Assembly (NCBI GenBank): GCA_965206345.1
Contig: OZ242211.1
Location: 1,338,758-1,402,757, forward strand
Direction of reading: 5' to 3'
DNA: 64,000 bases
Source: Arenicellales bacterium
GTDB taxonomy: Bacteria; Pseudomonadota; Gammaproteobacteria; Arenicellales; JAJDZL01
Positions 45,401 to 64,000 of this stretch are shown piece after piece. The notes beneath the pieces were generated by a model. That model searched no databases and was not told the origin of the DNA. It saw only the letters and a list, made by a program, of their open reading frames with translations. Numbering within the stretch: position 1 is the stretch's first letter; each line of letters begins with the position of its first letter. The translations under genes and the position numbers were made by a program.

Positions 45401-46434
45401 GCTACCCCGGTAATGAGTGGTTGGCCACCGGTTTGAAACCAGGACAGGAGATGAATATTGCAAAGTCTGAGGAGGGGAAATTTGCAATCCTAGAGGTTCC
45501 TGAGAAGGGAACAGCAAAAGTTCGGCTTGTTTTTCCAGTGGAAGACGGATTCTTCGCAGGTTTTAAAATGATCAAGGCTGAAGTTCAGGAACACTATGCC
45601 TGTGCAGAAGTTGAGAGCAGTCTTTATACTGCAGGATATGCGATCAATATTCCTAGAGAAGTAATGGACGAATTTGTATCGTTGTTTGAATCGCGTTTTG
45701 ACTTCAGCCGACAGTTACAACAGGATGATCAATTCTGCGTCATTTATGATCGTGAATACATCAAGGGTAAGCCTTTAAAGGAAATCAAAATTAAAGCGGG
45801 ATCTCTGATTCAGGAAAACGCTGAGTTGCGCGCCTTCCGGCACGTTGATGATGATCACAGGGTTGCCTACTATGACAGCGAGGGTTTGAACATGCAGGGA
45901 CACTTCCTGCGGTCACCAATCAAGTCTGCAAGAGTAGTTTCAAATTACAGTAAAAGACGCTACCACCCGGTGCTGAAAACCAATCGGCCCCATCTTGGTG
46001 TTGACTATGGCGCCAGAACTGGAACTCCAATTCGGTCGACTGCAACCGGACAGGTCATTAAACGTGGATGGTCCGGCGGTTATGGCAAAATGATCGTTGT
46101 TCAACACGGCAGCAAATATCGTACGCTTTATGCCCACATGTCACGCTATGCTGACGGCACCTCGGTTGGTAGCTACGTCAAGCAAGGGCAGGTGATTGGT
46201 TACGTCGGTTCAACCGGCCTGTCTACGGGTCCGCATTTACACTATGAATTTCATGTAAATGGTAGACATCGCGATCCGTTGCAATATGACATGCCAAAAG
46301 GCCAGCCCATTCCAGAACAATACAAAGTCACCTTTCAATCAGTAGTCGACGAATTCAGCAAACGTCTGGTAAGTATTGATTCACCACAGGTTGAGTACCG
46401 TCCCTCAACTGTCCAAACTGCGAGCAGCCAGTAA
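42412..46434 (+). CDS. MepM/YebA-like murein endopeptidase (OapA/LysM-like + M23) with an ~800-aa acidic repeat insertion
   Basis: N-terminal TM (LIYFTVFTALSLSILAFALVP). A highly acidic (E/D/Q-rich) repeat region follows, then VRPGDSLSSIF and ITVKKGDALSKIF LysM/OapA-like segments. The C-terminal M23 core is HLGVDYGARTGTPI...GSTGLSTGPHLHYEF. The tyrS / M23 peptidase / anmK synteny matches Pseudomonas. Confidence 0.85.
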   Translation: MNNNYDSKENYAGRHSTSSPASDWQRAVPFDVQNDTPLKGLIYFTVFTALSLSILAFALVPQLRVDDKNFNSITGIAPPVSQAITKEATPASEAAQNIELETDAQDGGNPVNILEQTVQTDSELDQPLGLTSSAMELTTAETSGSAKETESTGEQVSVQEPVDVSATGPAQLPEPPDPALELATTESSEELAPETDPQLSFELRNHTEEVIEVTETPVQPSEPMTLLTTELAALTDFDAEHQNLPESISDFESTASVGQAPVQQAELTVVEPRSLETELAQVDESETDRQSLEELVVPVESVLQVETEHGQQVEQMQPELAVVIDSEIDAQQSGGPASNQKSPEFTVTDSDQGSRPLQSATTEIAQIAAMRDIQQSHVEPVNDTESSARIDEESVEQPKLAVPVLEQLATELVAITDFDAENRNLPEPISDIESAAYVEEAPVQQFELAMLEPESLETELAQVAESVTDGQTFDELAVSAESEVQFVAEHEQQVEQIQAEIAVVSGAGKDAQNSSEPVNEREEPESIEMEQDQGFSELQPDTTQLARTAEVDVAQQSHIEPISNTESVARIGEELVDQSQPAVPVLEPLTTELAALTDFDAEIQNFPESVRDIEFADYVGEWFVSGPALLETELAKAAESVADDQRLVEPVLPAELVVQVEVEHEQQAEQIQPELNIVSVLAKEAQDPGELASSREAPEFIEAELDQSLGELQPATTQLARATEVDVAQQSHIEPISNTEPFARIGEGSAGQSQPVEPTVEPVETDLAETTESETGDEGVGGPISDYEQALQLDQQPNQQTQPDVTVLEPVSGEEKLVPTGVAEPVILLSTDLESLANAPVVLTESIVRPGDSLSSIFNRNNLSYKIAQRLISAPGSKPISVLYPRDHFKFVWSNNKLLGIELRRKNKLSLMATYDGRQFSVINIREARRAGTIVKLLKQEIDSVEREDLIDYETQYAKLKSTNLKWSTITVKKGDALSKIFRRTGLSAVEAIAVAGYPGNEWLATGLKPGQEMNIAKSEEGKFAILEVPEKGTAKVRLVFPVEDGFFAGFKMIKAEVQEHYACAEVESSLYTAGYAINIPREVMDEFVSLFESRFDFSRQLQQDDQFCVIYDREYIKGKPLKEIKIKAGSLIQENAELRAFRHVDDDHRVAYYDSEGLNMQGHFLRSPIKSARVVSNYSKRRYHPVLKTNRPHLGVDYGARTGTPIRSTATGQVIKRGWSGGYGKMIVVQHGSKYRTLYAHMSRYADGTSVGSYVKQGQVIGYVGSTGLSTGPHLHYEFHVNGRHRDPLQYDMPKGQPIPEQYKVTFQSVVDEFSKRLVSIDSPQVEYRPSTVQTASSQ
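43060..44700. repeat. three tandem ~522-543-bp (174-181 aa) coding repeats in the mepM-like gene
   Basis: ttacaga(t/c)tttgatgcagaa recurs at 43112, 43655 and 44198, a 543-nt spacing. gcccagcaaagtcacattgagccgatcagcaacac recurs at 44071 and 44593, a 522-nt spacing, because the third unit has a 21-nt deletion. Confidence 0.9.
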
Positions 46435-47669: not shown

Positions 47670-48977
47670 TCAGCAATCTAGCGTATTGGCACGCTCCCAG
47701 TTGGAAACTTCGGCGCAGTACTGATTCCAGTTCTGCAGTTTCAATTTGCAGTAGCTATTGATGTTGTCAGCACCAAGTGAATTTAGAAGCACCTTGTTGG
47801 ACTCGGTCAGTCGAATGGCATCCAGCAGATTCAGTGGTAGTTTCTTGACATCGCCAGCCAGTTCAGGATTGGCATACATGTCATTGTCCAGTCTCTGACC
47901 CGGGTCGCGATTATTCTGAATGCCATCAAGTCCGGCCGCTGCGATTCCAGCTTGCAACAGGTAAGGATTCGCTGAACCATCCATCAAACGTAATTCGAAA
48001 CGTCCAGCATCAGGAATTCGAATCATGTGTGTTCGATTGTTTCCGGTATAGGTAACTGAGTTGGGTGACCAGGAAGCGCCTGAACGGGTTCGTGCGGCAT
48101 TGATCCTCTTGTAGCTATTGACAGTTGGATTAAATATTGAACACAGCGCTTCTGCACTGTGAATGATGCCGCCCAAAAACTTGTAGGCCAGTTCGGATAG
48201 TCCCATTTCCTCAGATTCGTCAAGAAACAGATTTTTACTTCCATCGGCATTCCACACCGAGACATGTGCGTGACAACCATTACCAGTCAAATCAACAAAA
48301 GGTTTCGGCATAAATGTTGCGCGCTCACCATTGCGCTCAGCGATTGTCTTTACCATGAACTTGAAGAAGGTATGCTGATCTGCTGTCGTCAGGGCGTCGC
48401 TGTAGTCCCAATTCATCTCAAACTGGCCGTTGGCGTCTTCGTGGTCGTTCTGGTAAGGTCCCCAGCCAAGTTCGACCATTGCATCGCAGATTTCACTGAC
48501 GATGTGATATTTTCTGAGTAGCGAAGACTGGTCGTAGCAAGGTTTCTCCTGGGAGTCCAGCGAGTCATTGATATCATCGCCACTTGCGTTGATCAGCATG
48601 TATTCGCATTCCACTCCAGTTTTCATCACATGACCGTTTTCGGCGAACTTGGCGATCTGTCGCTTTAGCATGACGCGTGGACACTGCTCCACTTCAGCGC
48701 CGCTCATCCACAAATCTGCGGCCAGCCATCCGATTTCACGGTTCCATGGCAGTATGATGAGACTGTTGGGGTCGGGAATTGCGAGCATGTCAGGGTCTGC
48801 GGGAGTCATGTCCAGCCAGGTTGCGAATCCGGCGAACCCGGCGCCGTCTTCCTGCATACCACCAATTGCGGCAGCAGGCACAAGTTTTGCACGAAGTACT
48901 CCAAACAGGTCAACGAAACTAATCAAGAAATACTTGATTGATTCTTCTTTTGCGACTTTTGCAAGATCTGTCGGCAT
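47670..48977 (-). CDS. gmaS: glutamine synthetase-family protein, gamma-glutamylmethylamide synthetase (GmaS/GlnT)-like
   Basis: GS catalytic-domain blocks (TGNGCHAHVSVW, NSYKRI...SWSPN, RIPDAGRFELRLMDGSANPYL). 435 aa. Last gene of an mgsABC-like cluster. Confidence 0.7.
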   Translation of the reverse strand: MPTDLAKVAKEESIKYFLISFVDLFGVLRAKLVPAAAIGGMQEDGAGFAGFATWLDMTPADPDMLAIPDPNSLIILPWNREIGWLAADLWMSGAEVEQCPRVMLKRQIAKFAENGHVMKTGVECEYMLINASGDDINDSLDSQEKPCYDQSSLLRKYHIVSEICDAMVELGWGPYQNDHEDANGQFEMNWDYSDALTTADQHTFFKFMVKTIAERNGERATFMPKPFVDLTGNGCHAHVSVWNADGSKNLFLDESEEMGLSELAYKFLGGIIHSAEALCSIFNPTVNSYKRINAARTRSGASWSPNSVTYTGNNRTHMIRIPDAGRFELRLMDGSANPYLLQAGIAAAGLDGIQNNRDPGQRLDNDMYANPELAGDVKKLPLNLLDAIRLTESNKVLLNSLGADNINSYCKLKLQNWNQYCAEVSNWERANTLDC

Positions 48978-49110
48978 CTTTCAACCTCCTAAAATGTGAT
49001 TGGTGCTCACGTAAACAATCAATCAGACTGTTCAGCCTGATTCACATTATCGTGAGCAGGTCAAACTCAAAAATCTCTGTTGTACACCCACAACGAATTG
49101 CTCAAATGGT

Positions 49111-50433
49111 CTACGTTCCAGGAATCCAACTGGTTCCGGCAAGCGGCACTTTTGCCATAGCCGCTGCTTCTACTGTTAAAGCGACCATGTCCTCTGGTTC
49201 CAAATTCTGGACATGGCTCTTACCGCAGGCTCTTGCCAGTGTCTGTAGTTCGAGCACCATTGTGGAAAGGTAATTCCTAAGCCACCTCGATCCCTGCTCG
49301 GGTCGAAGACGCGCTTCGAGTTCAGGATCCTGGGTGGTAATTCCGACTGGACACTGTCCAGTGTGGCAATGATGACAGCACCCTGGCAAAGTACCGAGTT
49401 TTTCATAATCCTCAAGATAAACCGGTCGATTGCAGCCAAGCGCAACCATTGCCGCGCTGCCGATTGAAACAGCATCAGCCCCGAGAGCCAAAGCCTTGGC
49501 AACATCGGCGCCACTTCGAACGCCTCCCGACACGATCAACTGAACCTTACGATGCATATCGAGTTCAACGAGTGCATCGACGGCCTGTCGCACTGCGGGA
49601 AGAGTCGGAATTCCAACGTGTTCGATAAAAACATCCTGTGTTGCTGCAGTACCGCCTTGCATACCATCAAGCACAATAGCATCGGCTCCTGCCTTGATGG
49701 CCAGTGCAACATCAAACTGAACGCGGGTGGCACCGATTTTGATCAGAATTGGAATTTTCCAGTCAGTGATTTCTCTAAGTTCTTGAACTTTAATTTCGAG
49801 ATCATCAGGCCCGGTCCAGTCCGGGTGACGGCATGCGCTTCGTTGATCAATGCCAACTGGTAAATCACGCATTCCGGCAACCCGTTCGGTAATTTTCTGA
49901 CCCAGCAGCATGCCACCGCCACCAGGTTTTGCACCTTGCCCGACGACCACTTCCAGTGCGTCAGCGCGGCGTACATCATCCGGGTTTAGTCCGTACCTTG
50001 AAGGCAGAACCTGATAAATCAGTGTTTTTGATGAAAGTCGCTCTTCATCTGTCATTCCGCCATCACCTGTGGTGGTACTAGTTCCCATCTGGGTGGCTGC
50101 CAGTCCAATTGACTCTTTCGCGTTTGCACCGAGCGCGCCAAAACTCATACCAGCGATGGTAATCGGAATTTTAAGATCCAAGGGCTGCTTTGCAAACCGG
50201 TCGCCAATCACCACATTGGTATCACAGCGTTCGCGGTACCCTTCGAGCGGGTAGCGCGACATAGATGCACCTAAGAACAACAGATCGTCAAACGTCGGAA
50301 TTGATCGTTTCGCACCAAATCCACGGATTTCATAGACACCCTGATCAGCAGCTCGATGGATTTCTGCAAGCACATGGTCAGGGAACGTCGACGAGGGCCG
50401 AAGCACCCGGGAGTCAAAATTCTGACGTTTCAT
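49111..50433 (-). CDS. mgsC: FMN-binding glutamate-synthase-family protein (N-methylglutamate synthase subunit C / GlxD-like)
   Basis: GQGAKPGGGGML and the SGGVRSGADVAKALALGAD FMN/TIM-barrel blocks of GltB domain 2. ATG 50433 lies 1 nt after the mgsB-like stop, so the ORF-track start at 50490 is probably an over-extension. Confidence 0.75.
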   Translation of the reverse strand: MKRQNFDSRVLRPSSTFPDHVLAEIHRAADQGVYEIRGFGAKRSIPTFDDLLFLGASMSRYPLEGYRERCDTNVVIGDRFAKQPLDLKIPITIAGMSFGALGANAKESIGLAATQMGTSTTTGDGGMTDEERLSSKTLIYQVLPSRYGLNPDDVRRADALEVVVGQGAKPGGGGMLLGQKITERVAGMRDLPVGIDQRSACRHPDWTGPDDLEIKVQELREITDWKIPILIKIGATRVQFDVALAIKAGADAIVLDGMQGGTAATQDVFIEHVGIPTLPAVRQAVDALVELDMHRKVQLIVSGGVRSGADVAKALALGADAVSIGSAAMVALGCNRPVYLEDYEKLGTLPGCCHHCHTGQCPVGITTQDPELEARLRPEQGSRWLRNYLSTMVLELQTLARACGKSHVQNLEPEDMVALTVEAAAMAKVPLAGTSWIPGT

Positions 50434-50434
50434 T

Positions 50435-51112
50435 TCAGATGGTATCAGCGTTGTCGATATGAAAGTTATAGAGTGTCCGTGCCGAGCCATAGCGGCGGAA
50501 TTCCGCAGCTGAATAATGAAGTCCGGCGTTCTGTAACATGTCCTGAAGCTCGCTTTGGTGATCAGGCGTCATTTCTTTTTCGATGCAGTCTGAACCGAGA
50601 CTGTCAATTTCACCGCGAACAAAAATATGCGCTTCATAAATTGAATCACCGAGGTTGCCACCGCAGTCACCGCATACGACAAGTCTACCAGACTGTGCCA
50701 TGAATGCACCAAAGTGACCGATGGAGCCGCCTACGACAATATTTATGCCTTTCATCGAAATACCACAGCGCGAACTGGTATTGCCCTTGATCACAAGCAG
50801 GCCTCCATGACCTGAGGCGCCTGCATACTGCGAGGCGTTGCCATCTACGACAACCCGTCCAGACATCATGTTTTCAGCGAGCCCTGGCCCGGCGTTGCCG
50901 GCGATATGAATACTAGCACTTTTGTTCATTCCAGCACAGTAATATCCCACGTGGCCGTCGATGGTCACGTCAATTGGATCGGTCAGCCCGACGGCAACAG
51001 AATGCGTACCCTTGGGATGGGCGATGACAAATTCTTCACCTTCCTTTCTGTCGGAATGATGCAGAGCTGCGTTGATCTCCCGCAGCGATTGGGTGGCCAA
51101 ATCAAGCTGCAT
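50435..51112 (-). CDS. mgsB: GXGXG-motif (GltB C-terminal domain) protein (N-methylglutamate synthase subunit B / GlxC-like)
   Basis: Repeated beta-helix glycine motifs (GNAGPGLAENM, GASGHGGLLVIKGN, GGSIGHFGAFM). ATG 51112 (MQLDLATQSLREIN...) overlaps the mgsA-like stop by 11 nt. Confidence 0.75.
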   Translation of the reverse strand: MQLDLATQSLREINAALHHSDRKEGEEFVIAHPKGTHSVAVGLTDPIDVTIDGHVGYYCAGMNKSASIHIAGNAGPGLAENMMSGRVVVDGNASQYAGASGHGGLLVIKGNTSSRCGISMKGINIVVGGSIGHFGAFMAQSGRLVVCGDCGGNLGDSIYEAHIFVRGEIDSLGSDCIEKEMTPDHQSELQDMLQNAGLHYSAAEFRRYGSARTLYNFHIDNADTI

Positions 51113-52031
51113 TTTGATCTCCGGCTTCAGATTCACTACGCTCCCAGCTGTAAATCTGTGCAGGAGCGGGCTCCCAAATATTGGAGTGCTTTGCATCTGG
51201 CAGGCGGGCTATGGCACGATATTCCGATGACATTGCTACCCAGTCATCATTTTCTGCGAGCACCGCTGGCTTGCAGGCAATTGGATCGCGCAGCACTGAA
51301 AACCCGTTACTTGAGCCGATGGCAAACGTGTAAAAACCGTCGAGGTCGCGGATGGCAGACTTGAGAGCGTCGACTACTGATTCACCGAGTGACAGTCGCC
51401 AAGTCAGGTAACCTGCAGCCACTTCACTGTCATTGTCAGTTTGAAACTGGCCGCCTTGTCTGGTAAGGTAATTTCTGAGACGGTTGTGATTTGACAGTGA
51501 GCCATTATGGACCAGGCACAGGTCAAGACCTGTGGAAAATGGGTGAGAGTGCTCTGTGGTCACCGCACTTTCAGTTGCCATACGGGTGTGCGCAACGGCG
51601 TGTGTGCCAGAGAAGTTCTTAAACCCGAATCGCTCAGCAACAGCTTTCGGATGCCCCATTTCCTTGTAAATTTCGATTGACTCACCGACACTCATTATGC
51701 GCAGTTCCGGCCAATTGCTGCGTATCCAGCGCTCGATTTCATCGACTGGTGCTGAGCTTGTCAAAATGGCATGGCTGGCATGTATTTCAAGATCAAATTC
51801 AAGGTCAAATGCCTGGCTGACTTGAGCCGTCCGTGTCGGCCAGTCTTCATCTGAACTGGCACTGAATAGCGATACTTTAGAGCCTCCCTTAGGTGCCGGA
51901 TTTCGGTAAATTGCGACGCCTGCACTGTCAGGTCCACGGTCACCCATTTCCTCGAGCATGTCTGAGACGAACTCACCAAGCCGCGATTCTAGTTCAGGTT
52001 TCTTTAGATATAGACCAACAATTCCGCACAT
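51102..52031 (-). CDS. mgsA: class II (Ntn) glutamine amidotransferase-like protein (N-methylglutamate synthase subunit A / GlxB-like)
   Basis: N-terminal MCGIVG nucleophile, and HTRMATES...HPF. Confidence 0.75.
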   Translation of the reverse strand: MCGIVGLYLKKPELESRLGEFVSDMLEEMGDRGPDSAGVAIYRNPAPKGGSKVSLFSASSDEDWPTRTAQVSQAFDLEFDLEIHASHAILTSSAPVDEIERWIRSNWPELRIMSVGESIEIYKEMGHPKAVAERFGFKNFSGTHAVAHTRMATESAVTTEHSHPFSTGLDLCLVHNGSLSNHNRLRNYLTRQGGQFQTDNDSEVAAGYLTWRLSLGESVVDALKSAIRDLDGFYTFAIGSSNGFSVLRDPIACKPAVLAENDDWVAMSSEYRAIARLPDAKHSNIWEPAPAQIYSWERSESEAGDQNAA

Positions 52032-55579: not shown

Positions 55580-56308
55580 ATGCCAAGGAAGGGTTTCTCG
55601 TTGTACGCTCCGTTTGCAGCAGTGGGCTGTTGCCTTTTTCTTTTTTCCTCTTCCGCTAGTACCAAAGATCTAATGGAGTGTGTTCAATCAGTTGACCATA
55701 GCTTTGAAGGACAGCTACTTACTGAAGAAGAAAAGTATCAAATTCTGCTGCAGCGATTGGCAGATGACCAGATTCGCTTTGAAGAATGCCTCCAAATCAA
55801 CATCAGTGCCGCCAGGGACGGCGGTGGTGCGTCAGGAGGTGGAAGCGGCGGTACAAATTCAAGTGCAACAGCTGGTGGAGGTCAACTCAAAGGACAGAGT
55901 ACAGATGGCAGTCAGACCTTTGCTACTGCGTTGGAATCAATTTCTGCATCGGGAGTTCAGGGTACGGAATTGCCGGAGCCTGAAAATCAGATTACGGGAT
56001 TGGGCGAACCCGAAAATGAACCTGCCGAATTGTCTGATTTCGAAAATCAGGACGGACTTTCTCCGGCAATATTGAATGAAATTACACCAGGTGGTGTAGC
56101 AAGCGGTGGAAATAGAGTGCTTTCAAACGGCATGCAACCAGAGGAGCTGGAAGTTTCAGACAACGATGCAATTTTACTGAGCCAAATACTGGCGGCCGCT
56201 AACGCTGAACAGGACCCTGACAAGAAAAAGAAACTGATGGAAGAGTACCGTAGAATGAGATCAGGCAATAGCGGTGAAACCGCCGTAGCTGCAGGAGGGC
56301 AGCAATGA
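55580..56308 (+). CDS. secreted Gly/Ser-rich acidic protein, unknown function (first gene of the candidate operon)
   Basis: ATG 55580 gives MPRKGFSLYAPFAAVGCCLFLFSSSAS, a signal peptide. There is a low-complexity GGGASGGGSGG tract. The stop overlaps the next start (ATGA at 56305-56308). Confidence 0.5.
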   Translation: MPRKGFSLYAPFAAVGCCLFLFSSSASTKDLMECVQSVDHSFEGQLLTEEEKYQILLQRLADDQIRFEECLQINISAARDGGGASGGGSGGTNSSATAGGGQLKGQSTDGSQTFATALESISASGVQGTELPEPENQITGLGEPENEPAELSDFENQDGLSPAILNEITPGGVASGGNRVLSNGMQPEELEVSDNDAILLSQILAAANAEQDPDKKKKLMEEYRRMRSGNSGETAVAAGGQQ

Positions 56309-57540
56309 TGCTAACGAGAATTACTTCAATCGCACTACTGACAATTTTTTCGCTGTACCTTGCCGCTTGTGGCGGAACATCCGCGGTAGTTAGCTCCTCG
56401 ACCGCGCCAAAAACACCGTTTGGGATCAGCTTGGAACATTCACCCAATAATCAAGGTTGGAGCGAACAATATACAGGTGTGCGCCTTGATGTCATTGTGC
56501 CGTTGTTTGACCCCAACATACCCTCTGATCCTGACGACTATGAAAAGGAAGGCATTTGGCCGGAATTGCGTCGCACCGAAGCCATTCGCTTCTCCGTGAG
56601 CCTGTCGGATGAAATTAAAGCAACTGGTGCATTTAACGGCGTGCGCGTAACGCCGGACGTTGCGGTTAGCGGCGATCTTTTTGTTTCGGGCAAAATCCTC
56701 GAATCAAATGGCGAAGATATCAAGATCGAAGTGCAAGTGCATGACATCAGCGGCAAAAGATGGATGAAGCGGACTTATAAACATCGCGTGAAGGAGTATC
56801 ACTGGCAAAGTAGTCGCACCAGTGCTACGGATCCGTACAATCCAGTGTTCAAAAAGGCTGCCACCGACATTGTGAAACTTCTGAAGAAAAAATCTTCTGA
56901 AGAACTTGCTGATATCCGAGCGACTTCTCAGCTTCAGTTTGCTGCCACTCTTTCACCCGACGCATTTGCACAACATCTCGAAGTCAAAAACAATCGAGTA
57001 AAACTCGTTTCATTACCAGCAGTGAATGATCCATTACTGGTTCGAGCCAATGGAATGCGAGTGCAGGATGCGCTTTTCATGGATGATATGCAAAAACACT
57101 ACACAGGGTTTGTCCGTACAACCAATGCCAGTTACATTAACTGGCAGCAGCATAGTATGGAAGCTGCAAAGGCCCAGCGTGAAGCGGAAGGAAGGGCCAA
57201 TGCCCAGGCTATTGGTGGATTTTTGCTGCTTCTTGGTGCTGCGGCAATTGCTGACGACAGTAGCGGCGACACCGGCGCCGCTCTGGCAGCAACCGCCGTG
57301 GCAGTTGGTGGCATTTCAATGCTGCAAAACAGCTTTGCCGCAAATAGTGAGAGTAAATACCATCACGATATTCTGGTAGAGCATGGCGAATCGTTTAATC
57401 GCGAGGTTGAACCCAAAGTGATCCTGGTCGAAGGACATAAACTTGAAATTCGAGGCAGTGTTGTCACCCAATATCAAAAGTGGCGGGAAACTCTAAAACT
57501 GCTCCACGAACATGAATCTCCACCGCCGGTGCAACTCTAA
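56305..57540 (+). CDS. lipoprotein with a C-terminal hydrophobic Gly/Ala-rich segment, unknown function
   Basis: Lipobox LYLAACGG. A beta-rich middle part (DLFVSGKILESNGEDIKIEVQVHDISGKRW). A hydrophobic stretch, AIGGFLLLLGAAAIA...ALAATAVAVGGISML. Confidence 0.6.
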   Translation: MMLTRITSIALLTIFSLYLAACGGTSAVVSSSTAPKTPFGISLEHSPNNQGWSEQYTGVRLDVIVPLFDPNIPSDPDDYEKEGIWPELRRTEAIRFSVSLSDEIKATGAFNGVRVTPDVAVSGDLFVSGKILESNGEDIKIEVQVHDISGKRWMKRTYKHRVKEYHWQSSRTSATDPYNPVFKKAATDIVKLLKKKSSEELADIRATSQLQFAATLSPDAFAQHLEVKNNRVKLVSLPAVNDPLLVRANGMRVQDALFMDDMQKHYTGFVRTTNASYINWQQHSMEAAKAQREAEGRANAQAIGGFLLLLGAAAIADDSSGDTGAALAATAVAVGGISMLQNSFAANSESKYHHDILVEHGESFNREVEPKVILVEGHKLEIRGSVVTQYQKWRETLKLLHEHESPPPVQL

Positions 57541-57611: not shown

Positions 57612-59108
57612 ATGCCTGTCATGCACAGCAGCCAATCAGCAGGTGTCAAATTACTGAAACACGTTGTTCCCACCGTATTGAGCTTTTTCCTGTTCTGTGG
57701 TTTAGCAGATTCAGTCAGTTCCGATTTGCAGGTTGTTTCATCAATCACGCAGCCAAACGTTGAAAGCAAAACCAGCGACCAAGTTTTTCGCGACGATAAC
57801 CGCACAGATCACTCGTTAAGTCAGGACGATGCGATAGTCATTGGAGTTATCACGCAAACTTCATCTGACAGTCAACAATCAGAATCTAAACACTACAAAC
57901 AAATGCTTGCCCGCGTGGATGAAGCATTGACAGCGTGGGAAATAAGACGGTCAATTGTTCCAGGTTTTGATCAAAGTCTTGAGTTCATTCTTACCAGTCG
58001 GGGTAAGGCAGAAGCGGCTTTTTTTGACGTCGATTATCCGGAAGCGATTCGTCTCATAGAGCAGGTACTTGCTGAAGTCGAATACATTTTTCAGCTGGAG
58101 GAAGATTTCTATTACATCAATCTGAAAATCGCAATCAGTGCGTTTGAGGCGGAAGATGTCGAAGGCGCACAGGACGCCATCACTTTGGCACTCGCCTTGC
58201 GCCCCAACAACAAAGAGGCAGAATTTTGGCAGCAGCAGATTATTCAGTTGCCGGAATTGATTGCTGCCAGGCAGGTTGCCATTGAAGCACGCAATGAAGG
58301 TCGATTGCAGGATGAAATTGATGCACTTTATCGTGTTCTGAAAATTAAGCCTAACGAAGAAGAGGTGAAGACACGCATTGAAGCAGCAAATCGCGAGTTA
58401 CAGGACCAACGATTCAAACGCGCAATTGACGAAGGGCGTCAAGCACTGTCCAATCAGGATGTGGAAAAGGCGAGAAATGCACTAGCAAACGCTCAACGAT
58501 TTAAACCATCGCATCCGGAAATCTCGCGACTGAAACAAAGTATTGAAGAACTGGTCCGTGATCTTGAAGTGGCAAAACTGATTGAGGCTGCTGCAAATGG
58601 CGCAATTCAGGATGACTGGCTCGCTGTTCAGCAGAGCCTTGAGCTGGCGTTAAAGCTTAACCCGAATCTGAGTGATGCGATCGAGGGCCGAATTCTAGCC
58701 AAGAGCATCATTGACGCACAGTCTAAATTTGATGACTATTTGGCCAGATCACATCGGCTGAGTTCCAAAAATATTGTCGATGCCGTACGTAAGGAACTAG
58801 AGGAAGCCCAAGTGTTGCTGAAATACAGTCCACGCTTGCGAACAGCTGTCAGTGAACTTGAAGTTGAAGTGGTTAAGTGGCAAACAGAAGTGCCTGTGCG
58901 CGTGATCTCTGATGGCAAAACGCACATCATAGTGCGCAGGGTTGGCATTATCGGAGCAGTTCGCGATCGGGAGATTATGCTCAAACCCGGAACCTACCGA
59001 TTTGAGGGAACAAGGAGAGGGTATCGAAACAAGTTGGTGGAGGTAAAAGTTCCACCGTATGCTAATGAAGTTACCGAAGTAACGGTTATCTGCGATGAGC
59101 GGGTTTAA
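57612..59108 (+). CDS. secreted TPR-like/helical-repeat protein with a C-terminal PEGA-like beta domain
   Basis: Signal peptide (VVPTVLSFFLFCGLADS). Helical repeats (AITLALALRPNNKEAEFW..., ALELALKLNPNLSDAIEG). C-terminal VRVISDGKTHIIVRRVG...LKPGTYRFEGTRRGYRNKLVEVKV. 14-nt overlap with the next gene. Confidence 0.65.
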   Translation: MPVMHSSQSAGVKLLKHVVPTVLSFFLFCGLADSVSSDLQVVSSITQPNVESKTSDQVFRDDNRTDHSLSQDDAIVIGVITQTSSDSQQSESKHYKQMLARVDEALTAWEIRRSIVPGFDQSLEFILTSRGKAEAAFFDVDYPEAIRLIEQVLAEVEYIFQLEEDFYYINLKIAISAFEAEDVEGAQDAITLALALRPNNKEAEFWQQQIIQLPELIAARQVAIEARNEGRLQDEIDALYRVLKIKPNEEEVKTRIEAANRELQDQRFKRAIDEGRQALSNQDVEKARNALANAQRFKPSHPEISRLKQSIEELVRDLEVAKLIEAAANGAIQDDWLAVQQSLELALKLNPNLSDAIEGRILAKSIIDAQSKFDDYLARSHRLSSKNIVDAVRKELEEAQVLLKYSPRLRTAVSELEVEVVKWQTEVPVRVISDGKTHIIVRRVGIIGAVRDREIMLKPGTYRFEGTRRGYRNKLVEVKVPPYANEVTEVTVICDERV

Positions 59109-61116
59109 GGACCTTTTAGACAAGGCACAGCGCGCCCGTCGTCGTCGAATGATGCTGGGCATTGGTGGCGTAGTACTGATTCTATTGATTTCGGCGGGCG
59201 TCTATATCGGCACGGCCGTCATTGATCGAGTGTTTGTCGCTGTTGCACCAAATGAAGCGGTCGACATTGCACAATTGGAAATTCTTGATGGTACTGGCTG
59301 GATTTGGAAAGATGAAATTATTGCAGTAAGAGGCCCATTGAAACTACAGGTGTCTGCTGACGGATTCAAACAGGAAGTCTTGACGGTCGGTGATGCGACA
59401 TGGAGACGAGGGCGACTTGATGTGGTGCTAAAGCCACTGCCAGCTACAGTCACAGCAACAACCAAGCCAGAATCGGATGAAGTTCGCTGGTATTTGGATG
59501 GTACGTTGGTATCGGTAGCGGCACAGTTAACTGTCGATGTACCTGCGGGTCAGCACACAATTGAAGCCAGACATCCACATTTTGAACCAACCAGTCAATC
59601 GGTAACTCTTAAGCGCGGCGAGTCGTTTCAGTTGAGTCTTGATCTGAAACCAGTGATGGGTCTAGTTGAGATTACCTCTGCGCCGAGCGGGGCAGAAGTG
59701 TCACTTGATTCTGAAGCGATCGGAAAAGCTCCGCTGCACTTGGAATTGCAAGGCGGTGAGTATGAAATTGCGCTTTCACTCGCTGATCACGATCTGAGAA
59801 AGGATTCGTTTGTCATTTCGTCAAACAATCCTGCTGTGAGCCGGCACTATGAACTGGCAATGAGTAACCGCGAAGTGACATTTATGTTGACGCCGGCTGA
59901 TGGGTCATTGACAGTGGGTGGCAGTTCGGTTGCATCCCGAGAATTCGCAAGAGTTTCGCTACCCGTCAATTCCCGCCAAACCGCCACGTATTCGAAGCCT
60001 GGTTTCAGAACTCAAGAAATAGAATTCGAGGTGAACTCGAACTTTGACAACCAAATCAAAATAGAACTTCAGCCCGTTTACGGAATTGTGGAAGTCAGAT
60101 CAAACCCAACAGCTGATGTCTCTCACAATGGCAAAATCATTGGAAGAACTCCGGTTCTGGTTCGTATGCAGACGCTTCCTCAAACAATTACTGTCAGCCA
60201 GAAAAAATTCTTGCCTGAGACTCGCACGATTACGCCCGTTGAAGGCACAACCCGTGTTTTGGAGGTCAATCTTGTGTCGGAACAAGAACACCGACTAAAA
60301 ACCTCTCCGGATACGTATGTGAACAGCATTGGAATGAAATTCAAACTGTTCAGAGAGGCGGATTACTTCACTATGGGCTCAAAGCCCGGTGAATTAAACA
60401 GCAGACCGAACGAGTTTTATCGTCAGGTCCAGTTGAAAAAACCGTTCTACGCCGGCGTGCACGAAGTAACGATCGAAGCGTTTCAAACATTTATTGGCAG
60501 CAGTTCGACTCCAACCGGCGGTAATCGTCCGATTACTGGAATCAGTTGGAAGGAGGCAGCGCAGTTCAGCAACTGGCTCAGTGAAAAGGAGGGGCTGAGA
60601 ACTGTGTATAGGTTCACGGGTGACGAGTACCTGGGTAGCGATTCGACTGCGGATGGGTACCGGATGTTGACGGAAGCTGAATGGGAGTGGTTGGCCAGAA
60701 AGGCGGGCCGTAATCAGCAAACCATCTTCCCTTGGGGTAACGAGACAATCATTCCTCAAAACTCGGGCAATCTGGCTGATACGACGGCTAAGGGTTCGTT
60801 AGCTGTCTTCATTCCGCAATACGACGACGGCCAGGCAGGCGTGAGTGCGACAGGATTGTTTAAACCTAATCCCGCAGGCATTCATGACTTGACTGGCAAT
60901 GTGAGTGAGTGGACGCATGATGCGTATGACCACACTGTTCCCAGTGGCGATCAGATTGAGCTCGACCCATTCGACACCTCCAATGCCACATATCACACGA
61001 TCAAGGGGTCAAACTGGGCATCGGGTGAAGCAAGTGAACTTCGGGTCGCTTACAGAACGGGCAGTTCAGCAGGCAACGAGAGAACTGGGTTTCGACTTGC
61101 TCGTTATCTGTACTAG
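59095..61116 (+). CDS. single-pass membrane protein with tandem PEGA domains and a C-terminal FGE-sulfatase (SUMF1) domain lacking the catalytic cysteines
   Basis: TM MLGIGGVVLILLISAGVYIGTAV. PEGA units (GLVEITSAPSGAEVSLDSEAIGKAPLHLEL; GIVEVRSNPTADVSHNGKIIGRTPVLVRM). FGE-domain blocks (GMKFKLF..., HEVTIEAFQTF, PITGISWKEAAQFSNWLS, GYRMLTEAEWEWLAR, HDLTGNVSEWTHD, IKGSNWAS...TGFRLARYL). There is no Cys in the region equivalent to the FGE active site. Confidence 0.8.
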   Translation: MSGFKDLLDKAQRARRRRMMLGIGGVVLILLISAGVYIGTAVIDRVFVAVAPNEAVDIAQLEILDGTGWIWKDEIIAVRGPLKLQVSADGFKQEVLTVGDATWRRGRLDVVLKPLPATVTATTKPESDEVRWYLDGTLVSVAAQLTVDVPAGQHTIEARHPHFEPTSQSVTLKRGESFQLSLDLKPVMGLVEITSAPSGAEVSLDSEAIGKAPLHLELQGGEYEIALSLADHDLRKDSFVISSNNPAVSRHYELAMSNREVTFMLTPADGSLTVGGSSVASREFARVSLPVNSRQTATYSKPGFRTQEIEFEVNSNFDNQIKIELQPVYGIVEVRSNPTADVSHNGKIIGRTPVLVRMQTLPQTITVSQKKFLPETRTITPVEGTTRVLEVNLVSEQEHRLKTSPDTYVNSIGMKFKLFREADYFTMGSKPGELNSRPNEFYRQVQLKKPFYAGVHEVTIEAFQTFIGSSSTPTGGNRPITGISWKEAAQFSNWLSEKEGLRTVYRFTGDEYLGSDSTADGYRMLTEAEWEWLARKAGRNQQTIFPWGNETIIPQNSGNLADTTAKGSLAVFIPQYDDGQAGVSATGLFKPNPAGIHDLTGNVSEWTHDAYDHTVPSGDQIELDPFDTSNATYHTIKGSNWASGEASELRVAYRTGSSAGNERTGFRLARYLY

Positions 61117-61220: not shown

Positions 61221-61388
61221 ATGCTAAGACTAATGGTCGGAAATAAGCACTTCAGGGTGGTGCTGGCGGTGGCGCTTGCTGTTGCGTTGATTGTGTTTGC
61301 ATTTGGATATCACAAAGCTGGTACCGCGCAGAACACAGGACCGCAGATCAGTTTGAATACACCAGTCAGTTTCCCCGGGGATATTTAG
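61221..61388 (+). CDS. small single-TM protein (55 aa), not in the ORF track
   Basis: My translation gives MLRLMVGNKHFRVVLAVALAVALIVFAFGYHKAGTAQNTGPQISLNTPVSFPGDI. AGGAG lies 10 nt upstream. Its TAG stop directly abuts the TTG start of the ExbB-like gene. Confidence 0.4.
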   Translation: MLRLMVGNKHFRVVLAVALAVALIVFAFGYHKAGTAQNTGPQISLNTPVSFPGDI

Positions 61389-62144
61389 TTGAGAGAAGCA
61401 CTGCGTGGTCTGATAATTCTGGCTATTGCGGCAGCGTCGGTCCACACGCTTTATGTACAGTTAATTCGCCCCAGAGCGGAAATTCTAATTGAAGCTGGTG
61501 TGGCAGCCGGGCAGTATGCACCGCGAGATTGGGTTGTAATTCTGAAAGACTGGGAGCAGGAGATTTGCCTGATTCTTGCAATCTACTGTATTGTGGAAAT
61601 AATGATCCGTCTCTACAAACTTTCAAAAGAACAGTATCTTTTCGAAGTTGATTTTGTCGGTCAGGTTGAGTCGGGTGAGACCGATCTCAAGAGCACTTTG
61701 GAGGACCTTGAGACTTTGCCTCGCTCTGTGGGAAAATCTCAGTTGGTAGAGACGCTAAAGGCTTCCATTCGGCGGTATCGGATTACGTCTGATGTGCAGA
61801 ATACCTCCGATGCAATTCAAACCAGTGTTGATGCGGTAGCCATGCGACTTGAAGCAGATAACACAATGCTGCGCTACATGATTTGGGCGATTCCATCAAT
61901 TGGATTTATTGGCACAGTCCGTGGTATTGGGCAGGCGCTTTCGCAAGCCGACCAGGCGTTATCTGGAGACATTTCAGAAATGACTGCCAGCCTTGGCATC
62001 GCGTTTAACTCAACATTCGTCGCTCTGGTGATCAGCATTTTCCTGATGCTGCTTCTCCATTCGCTTCAGCGTGCACAGGACCGGCGCCTGGTCGACATAC
62101 AAAGTTATTGCGAAGAATTTCTCCTGAATCGAATCAGTCAGTAA
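61389..62144 (+). CDS. MotA/TolQ/ExbB-family proton-channel-like membrane protein
   Basis: Family motifs WAIPSIGFIGTVRGIGQAL (compare PxLGLLGTVxGm) and LGIAFNSTFVALVISIFLMLL (compare ALxTTxxGLxxAIP). 251 aa. TTG start from the ORF track. Confidence 0.75.
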   Translation: MREALRGLIILAIAAASVHTLYVQLIRPRAEILIEAGVAAGQYAPRDWVVILKDWEQEICLILAIYCIVEIMIRLYKLSKEQYLFEVDFVGQVESGETDLKSTLEDLETLPRSVGKSQLVETLKASIRRYRITSDVQNTSDAIQTSVDAVAMRLEADNTMLRYMIWAIPSIGFIGTVRGIGQALSQADQALSGDISEMTASLGIAFNSTFVALVISIFLMLLLHSLQRAQDRRLVDIQSYCEEFLLNRISQ

Positions 62145-62160
62145 TTATTGGGATATCTCC

Positions 62161-63228
62161 ATGAAAAGGAGACGACGCGCTCTCGGCAACAACCTTGCAT
62201 TCCTAGATGTGATGGCATGTGGTTTAGGTGCGGCGGTATTGGTTTTTCTGATTGTCAAGCATCACACAGGTGCTGAGCCGATGATTGAAGAGGCCGTATC
62301 TGACGACGGTCAAATTTTGACCATGCTTCGACAGTCCGAAGCAATGCTGGAAGATCAGGTTGAAGCGACTGCCCGACAAATTGAGAATTTGCAGACTCAA
62401 AACGAAGATCGCGAAAATCAGATCGAAGCTCACAAAGCCAAACAGGCTGAGTTGGAGGATTTGCAATTGCAGATCAAAGAGCTGAAGACGAAAAACTCAG
62501 GACTGAAGAAAGAGGTGGTCCGTATTCGTCCGCAGCAAACTGCAGATGTCATTCAGAACAAACAGACAGGCGAAGAGGACTACCTGATTGGGCTCAAAGT
62601 GGAGGGCCGACGAATTGCCATTGTTTTAGATCACAGCGCATCAATGACTGACGAAAAACTGGTTGACATTGTTACACGTAAACTTGGATCAGATGCTGAT
62701 AAACAAAAAGGACCGAAGTGGAATCGCACAGTTCGGGTGGCGCGCTGGCTGTTGGCTAGACTACCGAAGTCCAGTGAGGTAGCAGTCATCGGGTTCAATG
62801 AGAAGGCTAAGTTACTGAATAAAGGTGCCTGGGCTCACAGCAGCGACGCTACTCAGATCAACGGGCTTTTGGCTGAAATTGTCAGCCTTGTTCCGACTGG
62901 TGGAACCAACCTGGAAGCAGGATTGCGTGAGCTGAGAAATTTGAGACCGCAAGCGACCGATATCTATATTGTCACGGATGGACTACCCACGCGAAGCGTA
63001 TCTTCACCAAACCCGATATCCCGCTGTCGAAAAAATGCGACAAAAGTGAGTGGAAAGTGTCGTGTCGTTTTGTTTAACACAGCCATCAAGCATTCGATAC
63101 CTGCCAGAAGCAAAATTAACGTAATTCTGCTTCCGGTCGAAGGTGATCCTGATGCTGGACCACAATTTTGGGGTTTGACTGCCGCGACTGGTGGTTTGCT
63201 GCTGGTTCCAGCGGTGGGTTGGCCATGA
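62161..63228 (+). CDS. ExbD/TolR-like TM helix + coiled coil + von Willebrand factor A (MIDAS) domain protein
   Basis: N-terminus RRRRALGNNLAFLDVMACGLGAAVLVFLIV (compare TolR IVPLLDVLLVLLLIF, conserved Asp = D16, codon 62206-62208). Coiled coil from ~50-125. vWA motifs: IAIVLDHSASM (DxSxS), TGGTNLEAGL and IYIVTDGLPT. Confidence 0.8.
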   Translation: MKRRRRALGNNLAFLDVMACGLGAAVLVFLIVKHHTGAEPMIEEAVSDDGQILTMLRQSEAMLEDQVEATARQIENLQTQNEDRENQIEAHKAKQAELEDLQLQIKELKTKNSGLKKEVVRIRPQQTADVIQNKQTGEEDYLIGLKVEGRRIAIVLDHSASMTDEKLVDIVTRKLGSDADKQKGPKWNRTVRVARWLLARLPKSSEVAVIGFNEKAKLLNKGAWAHSSDATQINGLLAEIVSLVPTGGTNLEAGLRELRNLRPQATDIYIVTDGLPTRSVSSPNPISRCRKNATKVSGKCRVVLFNTAIKHSIPARSKINVILLPVEGDPDAGPQFWGLTAATGGLLLVPAVGWP

Positions 63229-64000
63229 GAAATCGCCGCCGAAGTGGTGAGGGTGAGAGCCTCGCTTTTCTTGATATTGTCACCTGTGGCTTTGGCGCGA
63301 TAGTACTGCTGCTGATCATTACTAAACCGGTACCGGACCACACGGACTTTGCAGAGCAGCAGCGAGACTTAAGTGGTGTTATTGAAACTGGGGGACAGCA
63401 GGTAATCGCATTGCAGGCAAAGTTGCAAAGCCTCCTGACTGAACTTGCGGCAATTCCCGATCCTAGTGAGCATTCAGTTGATCAAGGGCTGAATCAGTCC
63501 CTTTCTGAAGCACGAGATGCGGTTGAGGAATTAAATAGTAGCAACGAGGCGTTGGAGTTAGTCAAAGAGACTCTGATCGCAGCTACGATCACTCAGACAA
63601 CCACACCACAGCAACGTGACCCGGAGGTAGGTGGTATTCCGGTTGACAGTGAGTACGTGATATTTGTAATAGACACCTCAGGCAGCATGATTGAAATCTG
63701 GAATACTGTCATTGATACCATGAACCGAATCATAGATATCCATCCCAAGGTTAAAGGTTTTCAGGTAATTAATGACGACGGCAACTACCTGTTCAAATCA
63801 ACAAAAGGCAAGTGGATACCGGATACCTCAAAGTCCCGAAAGAGGGTCAAAGATGCGTTGAGACACTGGCGAAGCTTTTCAGACAGCAATCCCGTTCAAG
63901 GTTTGGAATCCGCACTTCGTACTTATGGAAGAAAACACGAAAAGTTATCCATATACGTCCTCGGGGATGAATTCACAGGTTCATCTTATGATGAAGTGAT
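63225..64000 (+). CDS. paralogous ExbD/TolR-like TM + coiled coil + vWA domain protein (3'-truncated by the window end)
   Basis: Not in the ORF track because it runs off the end. My translation gives MRNRRRSGEGESLAFLDIVTCGFGAIVLLLII (D17), then a coiled coil, then YVIFVIDTSGSM (DxSxS, D150 at 63672-63674) ... SIYVLGDEFTG. The ATG overlaps the upstream TGA (ATGA). Confidence 0.8.
   Translation, partial: MRNRRRSGEGESLAFLDIVTCGFGAIVLLLIITKPVPDHTDFAEQQRDLSGVIETGGQQVIALQAKLQSLLTELAAIPDPSEHSVDQGLNQSLSEARDAVEELNSSNEALELVKETLIAATITQTTTPQQRDPEVGGIPVDSEYVIFVIDTSGSMIEIWNTVIDTMNRIIDIHPKVKGFQVINDDGNYLFKSTKGKWIPDTSKSRKRVKDALRHWRSFSDSNPVQGLESALRTYGRKHEKLSIYVLGDEFTGSSYDEV

Follow-up and report, generated by a model that had tools for sequence, protein, structure and literature searches.

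Two tandem genes at the end of the 64,000-nt stretch of contig OZ242211.1 analyzed here (the window), vWA1 (g7) and vWA2 (g8), encode proteins that are probably the inner axle subunits of a non-canonical MotA/ExbB/TolQ-type motor driven by the proton motive force (PMF). Both proteins join a transmembrane (TM) helix with an invariant Asp to a long helical stalk and a domain of the von Willebrand factor A type (vWA) carrying the DxSxS motif of a metal ion-dependent adhesion site (MIDAS), and both are encoded beside g6, the gene for a MotA/ExbB/TolQ-family channel subunit. The three genes close a fixed run of eight (g1-g8). An earlier note, made by reading the letters of the window, had described the pair as tandem paralogs that fuse an ExbD/TolR-type Asp helix to a vWA/MIDAS domain.

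TM helix, stalk and vWA head of the paired proteins

The N-terminus of vWA1 is MKRRRRALGNNLAFLDVMACGLGAAVLVFLIV and that of vWA2 is MRNRRRSGEGESLAFLDIVTCGFGAIVLLLII. A basic tail precedes the TM helix in each protein (AFLDVMACGLGAAVLVFLIV in vWA1 and AFLDIVTCGFGAIVLLLII in vWA2), and the succession of a basic tail and (A/P)F(L/I)D(V/I) that the earlier note had read from the translations is seen in both. The invariant residues of the vWA1 helix are D16 (codon 62206-62208), C20, G23 and A24, and those of the vWA2 helix are D17 (codon 63273-63275), C21, G24 and A25. The Asp was kept in 61/61 aligned homologs, in all 123 evaluable representatives of 50%-identity clusters and in 100% of 336 N-termini drawn from both paralogs. 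Eight entries that start at a Met just past the Asp and one entry that lacks the N-terminus were not evaluable for this residue. Around the Asp, F(-2), L(-1), C(+4), G(+5), G(+7), A(+8) and L(+11) are conserved at 93-100%, and the Asp, C(+4), G(+7), A(+8) and L(+11) lie within an arc of ~100 degrees on the helix. Pairwise identity (vWA1/vWA2) is 0.69/0.71 in the helix compared to 0.54/0.58 in the vWA domain and 0.24/0.26 in the stalk. The predicted conservation of the Asp is therefore borne out in the best-conserved region of both proteins, and the helix is not a generic signal anchor.

Public gene calls for 8 of the 132 full-length vWA1 representatives (P0248, P0257, P0265, P0278, P0344, P0366, P0369 and P0378) begin at the Met directly after the conserved Asp. 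Surveys based on annotation would miss the Asp because such gene calls drop both the tail and the Asp.

The vWA2 gene is cut by the end of the window, and the full-length protein (313 aa) was supplied by the metagenome contig L001, which encodes an identical vWA1 and differs from the window by one change (T72I) across the 258 vWA2 residues present there. vWA1 consists of the basic tail, the TM helix (residues 12-33), a heptad helix (~46-121) and a vWA domain (~145-355); vWA2 consists of the basic tail, the TM helix, a helical stalk (~50-121) and a vWA domain. The match of vWA1 to Pfam VWA_2 scores 35.1 bits against a cut-off of 27. vWA2 scores 22.7-23.6 bits, which is under the cut-off, and 22 of 31 family members match VWA_2. 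AlphaFold2 models were built from the family alignments, with the 90%-identical P0122 as the first row for vWA2, and had a mean predicted local distance difference test (pLDDT) score of 76.6 for vWA1 and 71.9 for vWA2. In each model a single TM helix is combined with a long helix (residues 46-121 in vWA1; 50-76 plus 83-121 in vWA2) and an alpha/beta domain. The pLDDT of this domain is mostly 83-95 in vWA1, with four 10-residue blocks at 59-79, and 66-91 over most of its length in vWA2. A Foldseek search of the PDB returned vWA and integrin I-type domains as the dominant class in the top 50 for both models (best E 6.8e-8 and 6.5e-8), and the matches include CLCA1, ITIH1, ANTXR2, ArnB and the Bacteroides aerotolerance protein (4jdu). 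The models and the Foldseek matches identify both C-terminal domains as vWA folds, as the earlier note had read them.

The vWA1 stalk has a heptad signal at period 3.5 with a power of 9.1, above all 1000 shuffles, and the vWA2 stalk has a signal at period 3.6 with a power of 7.6 that was equaled by 1/1000 shuffles. A heptad helix of ~75 residues is thus present in both proteins where a coiled coil of ~70-90 aa had been proposed. From the Asp to the MIDAS, vWA1 spans 134-146 residues and vWA2 125-138, and the stalks are within ~10 residues of each other. The vWA domains are predicted to be periplasmic because the basic tail precedes the helix and a Cys pair is conserved in vWA1 (C289/C300).

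BLASTP aligned vWA1 with vWA2 over 31 N-terminal residues only (55% identity, E 7e-9). With hhalign, the profiles of the two families gave an alignment of 240 columns (probability 98.85%, E 4e-17), which pairs helix with helix, stalk with stalk, DxSxS with DxSxS and TDG with GDE. These comparisons support the description of the genes as tandem paralogs with aligning N-termini; judged from the profiles, vWA1 and vWA2 are old, distant paralogs that have the TM helix as their sole strongly shared part. The MIDAS motifs listed in the earlier note were located at residues 157-161 of vWA1 (DHSAS) and 150-154 of vWA2 (DTSGS; 63672-63686), and DxSxS occurs in 132/132 representatives. The vWA1 MIDAS is complete, with D157, S159, S161, T249 and D273 all invariant. 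The invariant MIDAS residues of vWA2 are D150, S152, S154 and D248.

The g6 channel and its missing canonical axle

Genomic context was analyzed in the best 80 of 584 relatives found in a genome-collection scan, with each locus taken with ±10 kb. Both vWA genes are present in 80/80 loci, always as neighbors in the same order and often overlapping, and g6, vWA1 and vWA2 stand side by side in 79-80 of the 80. The vWA2 start codon overlaps the vWA1 stop codon in the window (ATGA), which suggests coupled, equimolar expression of the two proteins.

The g6 product matches Pfam MotA_ExbB (PF01618) with 59 bits against a cut-off of 22.9. A MAFFT alignment with E. coli TolQ and ExbB places T176 and T209 of g6 opposite TolQ T145/T178 and ExbB T148/T181, the pore-lining threonines of those channels, and both residues are invariant in 80/80 g6 homologs. 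The Pfam score and the invariant threonines confirm the assignment of this adjacent gene as a channel gene in the earlier note. The last two TM helices are the best-conserved region of g6 (0.79). The position of ExbB E176 is not conserved among the g6 homologs. A phmmer search of the PDB with g6 returned a chance match to CydD only, and the connection of g6 to TolQ and ExbB rests on the Pfam match and the MAFFT alignment.

A search for a canonical axle used E. coli TolQ, TolR, ExbB and ExbD as phmmer queries against all open reading frames (ORFs) of at least 40 aa. No TolR or ExbD relative, and no TolQ or ExbB relative, was found at E≤1e-3 in the 80 loci with their ±10 kb or in the 64-kb window, and Pfam detected no ExbD domain in any cassette protein. 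Direct reading of the single-pass cassette proteins located an acidic residue within the helix in vWA1 and vWA2 only. The two proteins also have the ExbD-like arrangement of a single N-terminal TM helix with a tail before it and a conserved Asp near its cytoplasmic end.

The resemblance to ExbD does not extend to detectable homology. The AFLDVM of this locus and the PFIDVM of E. coli ExbD have a five-residue motif likeness that is without statistical support, and the periplasmic alpha/beta domain of ExbD/TolR is not present in vWA1 or vWA2, which have the coiled coil and the vWA fold instead. Several results weigh against an axle role, and three of them concern the helix as a relative of ExbD. 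Pfam ExbD (PF02472) did not match full-length vWA1 and vWA2 at E≤1 or their N-termini at E≤10, and the positive controls scored 78 bits (E. coli TolR) and 106 bits (E. coli ExbD). A 40-column profile of the helix found nothing in the PDB. With a hidden Markov model (HMM) of the 336 helices, ExbD and TolR of E. coli both scored -0.3 bits, the level of random-ORF noise, and ranked 639 and 659 among the non-family ORFs of an 11,258-sequence database. The conservation of one helix face is marginal by a shuffle test (p = 0.059). The vWA1 model has a pLDDT <50 over most of the TM region (residues 1-19, 21-23 and 32-49), and the vWA2 helix is modeled at intermediate confidence (block means of 57-72). 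The lengths of the vWA1 and vWA2 stalks do not covary (Pearson r = -0.18). Finally, the position of the MIDAS Thr in vWA2 aligns with Glu225, with the invariant Ser219 and Ser221 close by.

The locus is not placed in the ExbD/TolR family, and membership is not claimed because all three tests of helix homology (Pfam, PDB profile and helix HMM) found nothing. Of the ExbD/TolR signature that the earlier note had assigned to the helix, the short motif likeness and the Asp stand, and sequence similarity to the family does not. vWA1 and vWA2 most likely work like ExbD, TolR and MotB, a case made by analogy from architecture and context and not from helix homology. Homolog alignment gave a mixed outcome for the MIDAS as well: all five residues are invariant in vWA1, and the Thr position is Glu/Ser in vWA2, so the vWA2 MIDAS looks non-canonical. 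The complete vWA1 site beside an atypical vWA2 site with Glu/Ser at the expected Thr would fit an asymmetric pair.

The eight-gene cassette

The eight genes run to the end of the window on the + strand and are tightly packed (Table 1).

Table 1. Genes of the cassette, with their positions in the window and their occurrence in the 80 loci.
Gene	Position	Strand	Product	Loci
g1	55580..56308	+	secreted protein, ~242 aa (ORF list, L001 gene call, family alignment)	64/80
g2	56305..57540	+	lipoprotein, 411 aa	71/80
g3	57612..59108	+	anchored TPR protein, 498 aa	73/80
g4	59095..61116	+	anchor, PEGA repeats and FGE-sulfatase fold, 673 aa	76/80
g5	61221..61388	+	small protein, 55 aa (equivalent in L001 at 8048-8215)	
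g6	61389..62144	+	channel subunit of the MotA/ExbB/TolQ family with four predicted TM helices, 251 aa	
g7 (vWA1)	62161..63228	+	355 aa	
g8 (vWA2)	63225..64000	+	313 aa at full length, truncated by the end of the window	

The order g1-g2-g3-g4-(g5)-g6-g7-g8 is maintained in every locus whose contig reaches far enough, and g1, where found, is always upstream on the same strand. No gene beyond the eight is conserved past close relatives (at most 9/80 loci), and the cassette is self-contained for this reason. The genes 3' of vWA2 in L001 are unrelated (DUF169, PEPCK). The nearest genomes are metagenome-assembled genomes (MAGs) of Arenicellales (Gammaproteobacteria) with 93-97% identity. The hosts of the best 80 loci are Gamma-, Alpha- and Zetaproteobacteria, Desulfocapsaceae (Desulfobacterota), Nitrospirales and one Spirochaetales MAG. 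Candidate carriers in culture that came up in the genome-collection scan are Magnetovibrio blakemorei MV-1, Aestuariispira insulae CECT 8488 and Denitrobaculum tricleocarpae R148. The 41-52% identity of vWA1 across phyla and the lack of conserved flanking genes suggest that the cassette spread horizontally as a unit. No match was obtained in a plasmid search with vWA1. In a profile search of 1.84 billion representatives, 297 clusters passed E≤1e-30 and 692 clusters passed E≤1e-10, which puts the family at ~300 clusters at 50% identity (E≤1e-30), mostly from marine and uncultured bacteria of several phyla; the organism names among the cluster members are Pseudodesulfovibrio and Methylophaga MAGs only. 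Promoter-like sites were at the level of the shuffle background. Terminator-like sites exceeded the shuffles (16 versus 9.0 ± 2.8), and none is at an operon boundary.

The gene for the small protein g5 lies between g4 and g6, and its stop codon abuts the g6 start. The protein has 44-70 aa across the loci, with a basic N-terminus, a hydrophobic helix that is a signal peptide or an anchor, and the near-invariant C-terminus ISLNSP(V/T)SFP(V/G)DI (...L-x5-FP-x-DI), in which there is no variation at L(-11), F(-5), P(-4), D(-2) and I(-1). A direct motif scan detected a g5-like ORF in 80/82 sources (the 80 loci, L001 and the window). BLAST found g5 in 24 loci, and a word-index homolog search with the 55-aa protein found 9 close relatives only. 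g5 has no consistent Pfam family; the one match, to DUF7311, is sub-threshold and confined to the window copy. Cleavage of g5, if it occurs, would yield a periplasmic peptide that is ~13-20 residues long and has Asp-Ile at its end.

The secreted protein g1 combines a signal peptide, an N-domain in which a Cys pair is conserved, a low-complexity Gly/Ser/acidic linker and, at the C-terminus, a conserved acidic motif, NGKxPEDIPxADNDSVLEAQIR...LWNEYRKYKGLP, and it matches nothing in Pfam or NCBIfam. This C-terminal motif is another candidate MIDAS ligand. The lipobox L-x-[GA]-C of g2 is conserved and its C22 is invariant; the g2 family profile has no relative in Pfam or the PDB. g3 has an N-terminal membrane anchor and a conserved C-terminal beta-rich domain, and its TPR matches are weak in the window copy and clearer across the family (TPR_2 down to 9e-9). 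g4 has an N-terminal anchor and matches Pfam FGE-sulfatase (2.4e-30) and PEGA (1e-23), and its best NCBIfam match is GldK/PorK (TIGR03525) at 70.7 bits, well under the cut-off of 350. The last 70 residues of g4, where we take the FGE catalytic cysteines to be located, contain no Cys in 73/73 homologs. Given that location, the g4 FGE-fold domain is probably a non-catalytic binding module like GldK, PorK and GldJ.

Two features elsewhere in the window were noted from their translations. The ORF at 42412-46434 (+, 1340 aa) contains several imperfect repeats, long and acidic, within the N-terminal two thirds, and its C-terminal region reads as M23 (LytM-type) peptidase-like (HxxxD ... HLHYE). Four adjacent genes at 47670-52031 (-) read as glutamine-synthetase-like, flavin mononucleotide (FMN) glutamate-synthase-like, GXGXG-domain and class II amidotransferase proteins, an arrangement typical of the N-methylglutamate (methylamine utilization) pathway.

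Proposed mechanism, alternatives and related systems

In the proposed mechanism, the vWA1 and vWA2 helices would sit side by side inside a pentamer of g6. Proton flow at the Asp/Thr sites would drive movement, with the two Asp residues gaining and losing protons to produce either rotation or a power stroke, by the principle of ExbBD, TolQR and MotAB. The ~75-residue stalks would pair and hold the vWA heads ~10 nm into the periplasm, where the MIDAS sites would clamp an acidic residue of a partner and apply PMF-derived force to it. The partner would probably be another product of the cassette, either the secreted g1, the lipoprotein g2, the TPR protein g3, the PEGA/FGE-fold g4 or g5. The stalks most likely pair as a vWA1-vWA2 heterodimer, which is favored by the constant co-occurrence of the two genes, by gene overlap and by stalks of similar length. 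A 5:2 stoichiometry is inferred by analogy and from published AlphaFold 3 models of a related system (PMC12204202).

An unlikely alternative to the heterodimer that keeps the same motor principle is that vWA1 and vWA2 form two separate homodimeric axles, with different heads, that share one channel protein. Canonical ExbD, TolR and MotB are homodimeric, vWA1 and vWA2 have diverged past BLAST detection outside the helix, and two homodimeric motors retain some probability because the stalk lengths do not covary. Against this stand the unbroken adjacency, order and frequent overlap of the two genes in 80/80 loci and stalks whose lengths are within ~10 residues of each other. The PMC12204202 survey also found mostly heterologous pairs and modeled one Asp per monomer.

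It is distinctly improbable that the vWA proteins reside outside the channel, either as membrane-anchored periplasmic adaptors or adhesins of the Bat type or as a side-docked transducer of the TonB/TolA type, with the Asp serving helix-helix association or another role. The helix has no sequence link to ExbD/TolR, the structural matches include an aerotolerance-related vWA membrane protein of Bacteroides (4jdu), and a class of TM-vWA proteins that dock at the side of TolQR-like motors has been proposed (PMC12204202). However, the searches of the loci and the window left no ExbD/TolR/MotB-like gene to fill the channel, and the other cassette proteins have no acidic residue in a TM helix. By direct reading, the vWA1 and vWA2 helices lack the SHLS/His motif of side-docking transducers. 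Conservation within the vWA proteins peaks in the TM helix, and within the channel protein it peaks in the pore helices. A Bat operon was rejected, since the cassette contains no MoxR AAA+ ATPase or DUF58 gene and has no conserved flanking genes. A Zorya-type reading, with the cassette as a mobile system for anti-phage defense or conflict whose MotA-like motor would sense envelope perturbation, deserves very little credence. It would account for a self-contained cassette in varying genomic contexts with 41-52% identity across phyla and for a weak ZorA match of g6 (PADLOC E 2.7e-4, 18 bits; NCBIfam ZorA E 0.51), and Zorya ZorAB is likewise a MotAB-like module outside flagella in a mobile cassette. 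The 18-bit ZorA match is the only one, however, and the cassette has no equivalent of ZorB with its peptidoglycan-binding domain, no ZorC or ZorD effector and no effector domain of another kind, a nuclease or an ATPase included. Each of the eight products is an envelope or periplasmic protein, PADLOC gave nothing specific for the other seven (vWA1 had coiled-coil-type matches only), and a plasmid copy was not found with vWA1. Assignment to Zorya was rejected because the defining ZorB and ZorC/D (or ZorE) are missing in PADLOC and NCBIfam.

The preferred reading, a vWA1-vWA2 axle within the g6 channel, has a published counterpart. A "TPH-vWA" motor class was predicted computationally with AlphaFold 3 models of an Idiomarina loihiensis system (PMC12204202, Mol Biol Evol 2025). 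TM-tethered vWA genes of this class co-occur tightly with tolQ homologs without tolR/exbD and are mostly heterologous pairs, mainly in Proteobacteria, and the models place the conserved Asp of a "trans-pore helix" inside a Thr ring (section 8, Fig. 4c-d). The paper states that the class has no known function and no phenotypes. The locus in the window shares the TolQ-like gene without tolR/exbD, the heterologous TM-vWA pair, the Asp, the Thr ring and the lack of SHLS, and it agrees with TPH-vWA in every descriptive criterion, the comparison being with the published description of the class. The text of PMC12204202 does not mention MIDAS conservation, a PEGA/FGE-fold protein, a lipoprotein or a g5-like protein. 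Our literature search found no other paper that describes this arrangement and no description of a strictly ordered eight-gene envelope cassette with a small g5 protein.

Like ExbB-ExbD, TolQ-TolR and MotA-MotB, the locus encodes a channel with two pore threonines and, immediately downstream, a partner with a basic tail and an Asp helix. It differs from them in having a coiled coil and a vWA/MIDAS head in place of an ExbD/TolR or OmpA-like domain, in having two distinct axle genes instead of one, and in the helix itself, which has its own invariant C-G-x-G-A motif. AglR-AglQ/AglS of Myxococcus gliding and the motors of the Planctomycetes, Verrucomicrobia and Chlamydiae (PVC) group with two tolR-like genes are a precedent for heteromeric axles, which is given in PMC12204202 as well. 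They also combine one TolQ-like channel with two different axle-type genes, but their axles are ordinary TolR-like proteins without vWA heads.

The order of the cassette, with a putative non-catalytic FGE-fold protein, a motor channel and single-TM proteins with long periplasmic parts, resembles GldKLMN/PorKLMN, as does the logic of a PMF motor with a dimeric periplasmic stalk that reaches an outer complex. The GldK score of 70.7 bits against 350, the absence of GldL, GldM and GldN matches in NCBIfam, a MotA/ExbB-type motor with the Asp on the axle and the different host phyla set the cassette apart, and the resemblance in gene order and logic is an analogy only. A true type IX secretion system was rejected on the sub-threshold GldK match and the unmatched GldL/M/N partners. 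A more far-reaching version of the proposal, which is possible but doubtful, is that vWA1 and vWA2 are the axle pair of a mobile eight-gene trans-envelope machine and counterpart of GldKLMN. The MotA-like pentamer would turn or pull the heterodimer, the MIDAS would clamp an invariant acidic element of the cassette (the g5 FP(V/G)-Asp-Ile or the g1 DIPxADNDS), and the force would pass to an outer assembly in which the FGE-fold/PEGA protein and the TPR protein join the outer-membrane lipoprotein. Such a machine would be an independently evolved type IX-like architecture of Proteobacteria and other phyla with a role at the surface or in the envelope.

MotA/ExbB-type 5:2 motors are the main known means of delivering energy to the periplasm and outer membrane in diderms. 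The outputs known so far are torque for flagella, TonB-dependent import, maintenance of the envelope by Tol-Pal, gliding and type IX secretion, and Zorya defense. The core idea of a vWA axle is already in print as a prediction, and the present analysis adds independent confirmation, the cassette context and the limits of what sequence alone supports. If the proposal is correct, an axle with integrin-like, metal-dependent heads would be a further and mechanically direct output, a motor-driven clamp. The fixed eight-gene set provides concrete ligand candidates for this clamp and makes the system testable, and the cassette together with the g5 C-terminal motif is a source of new testable handles.

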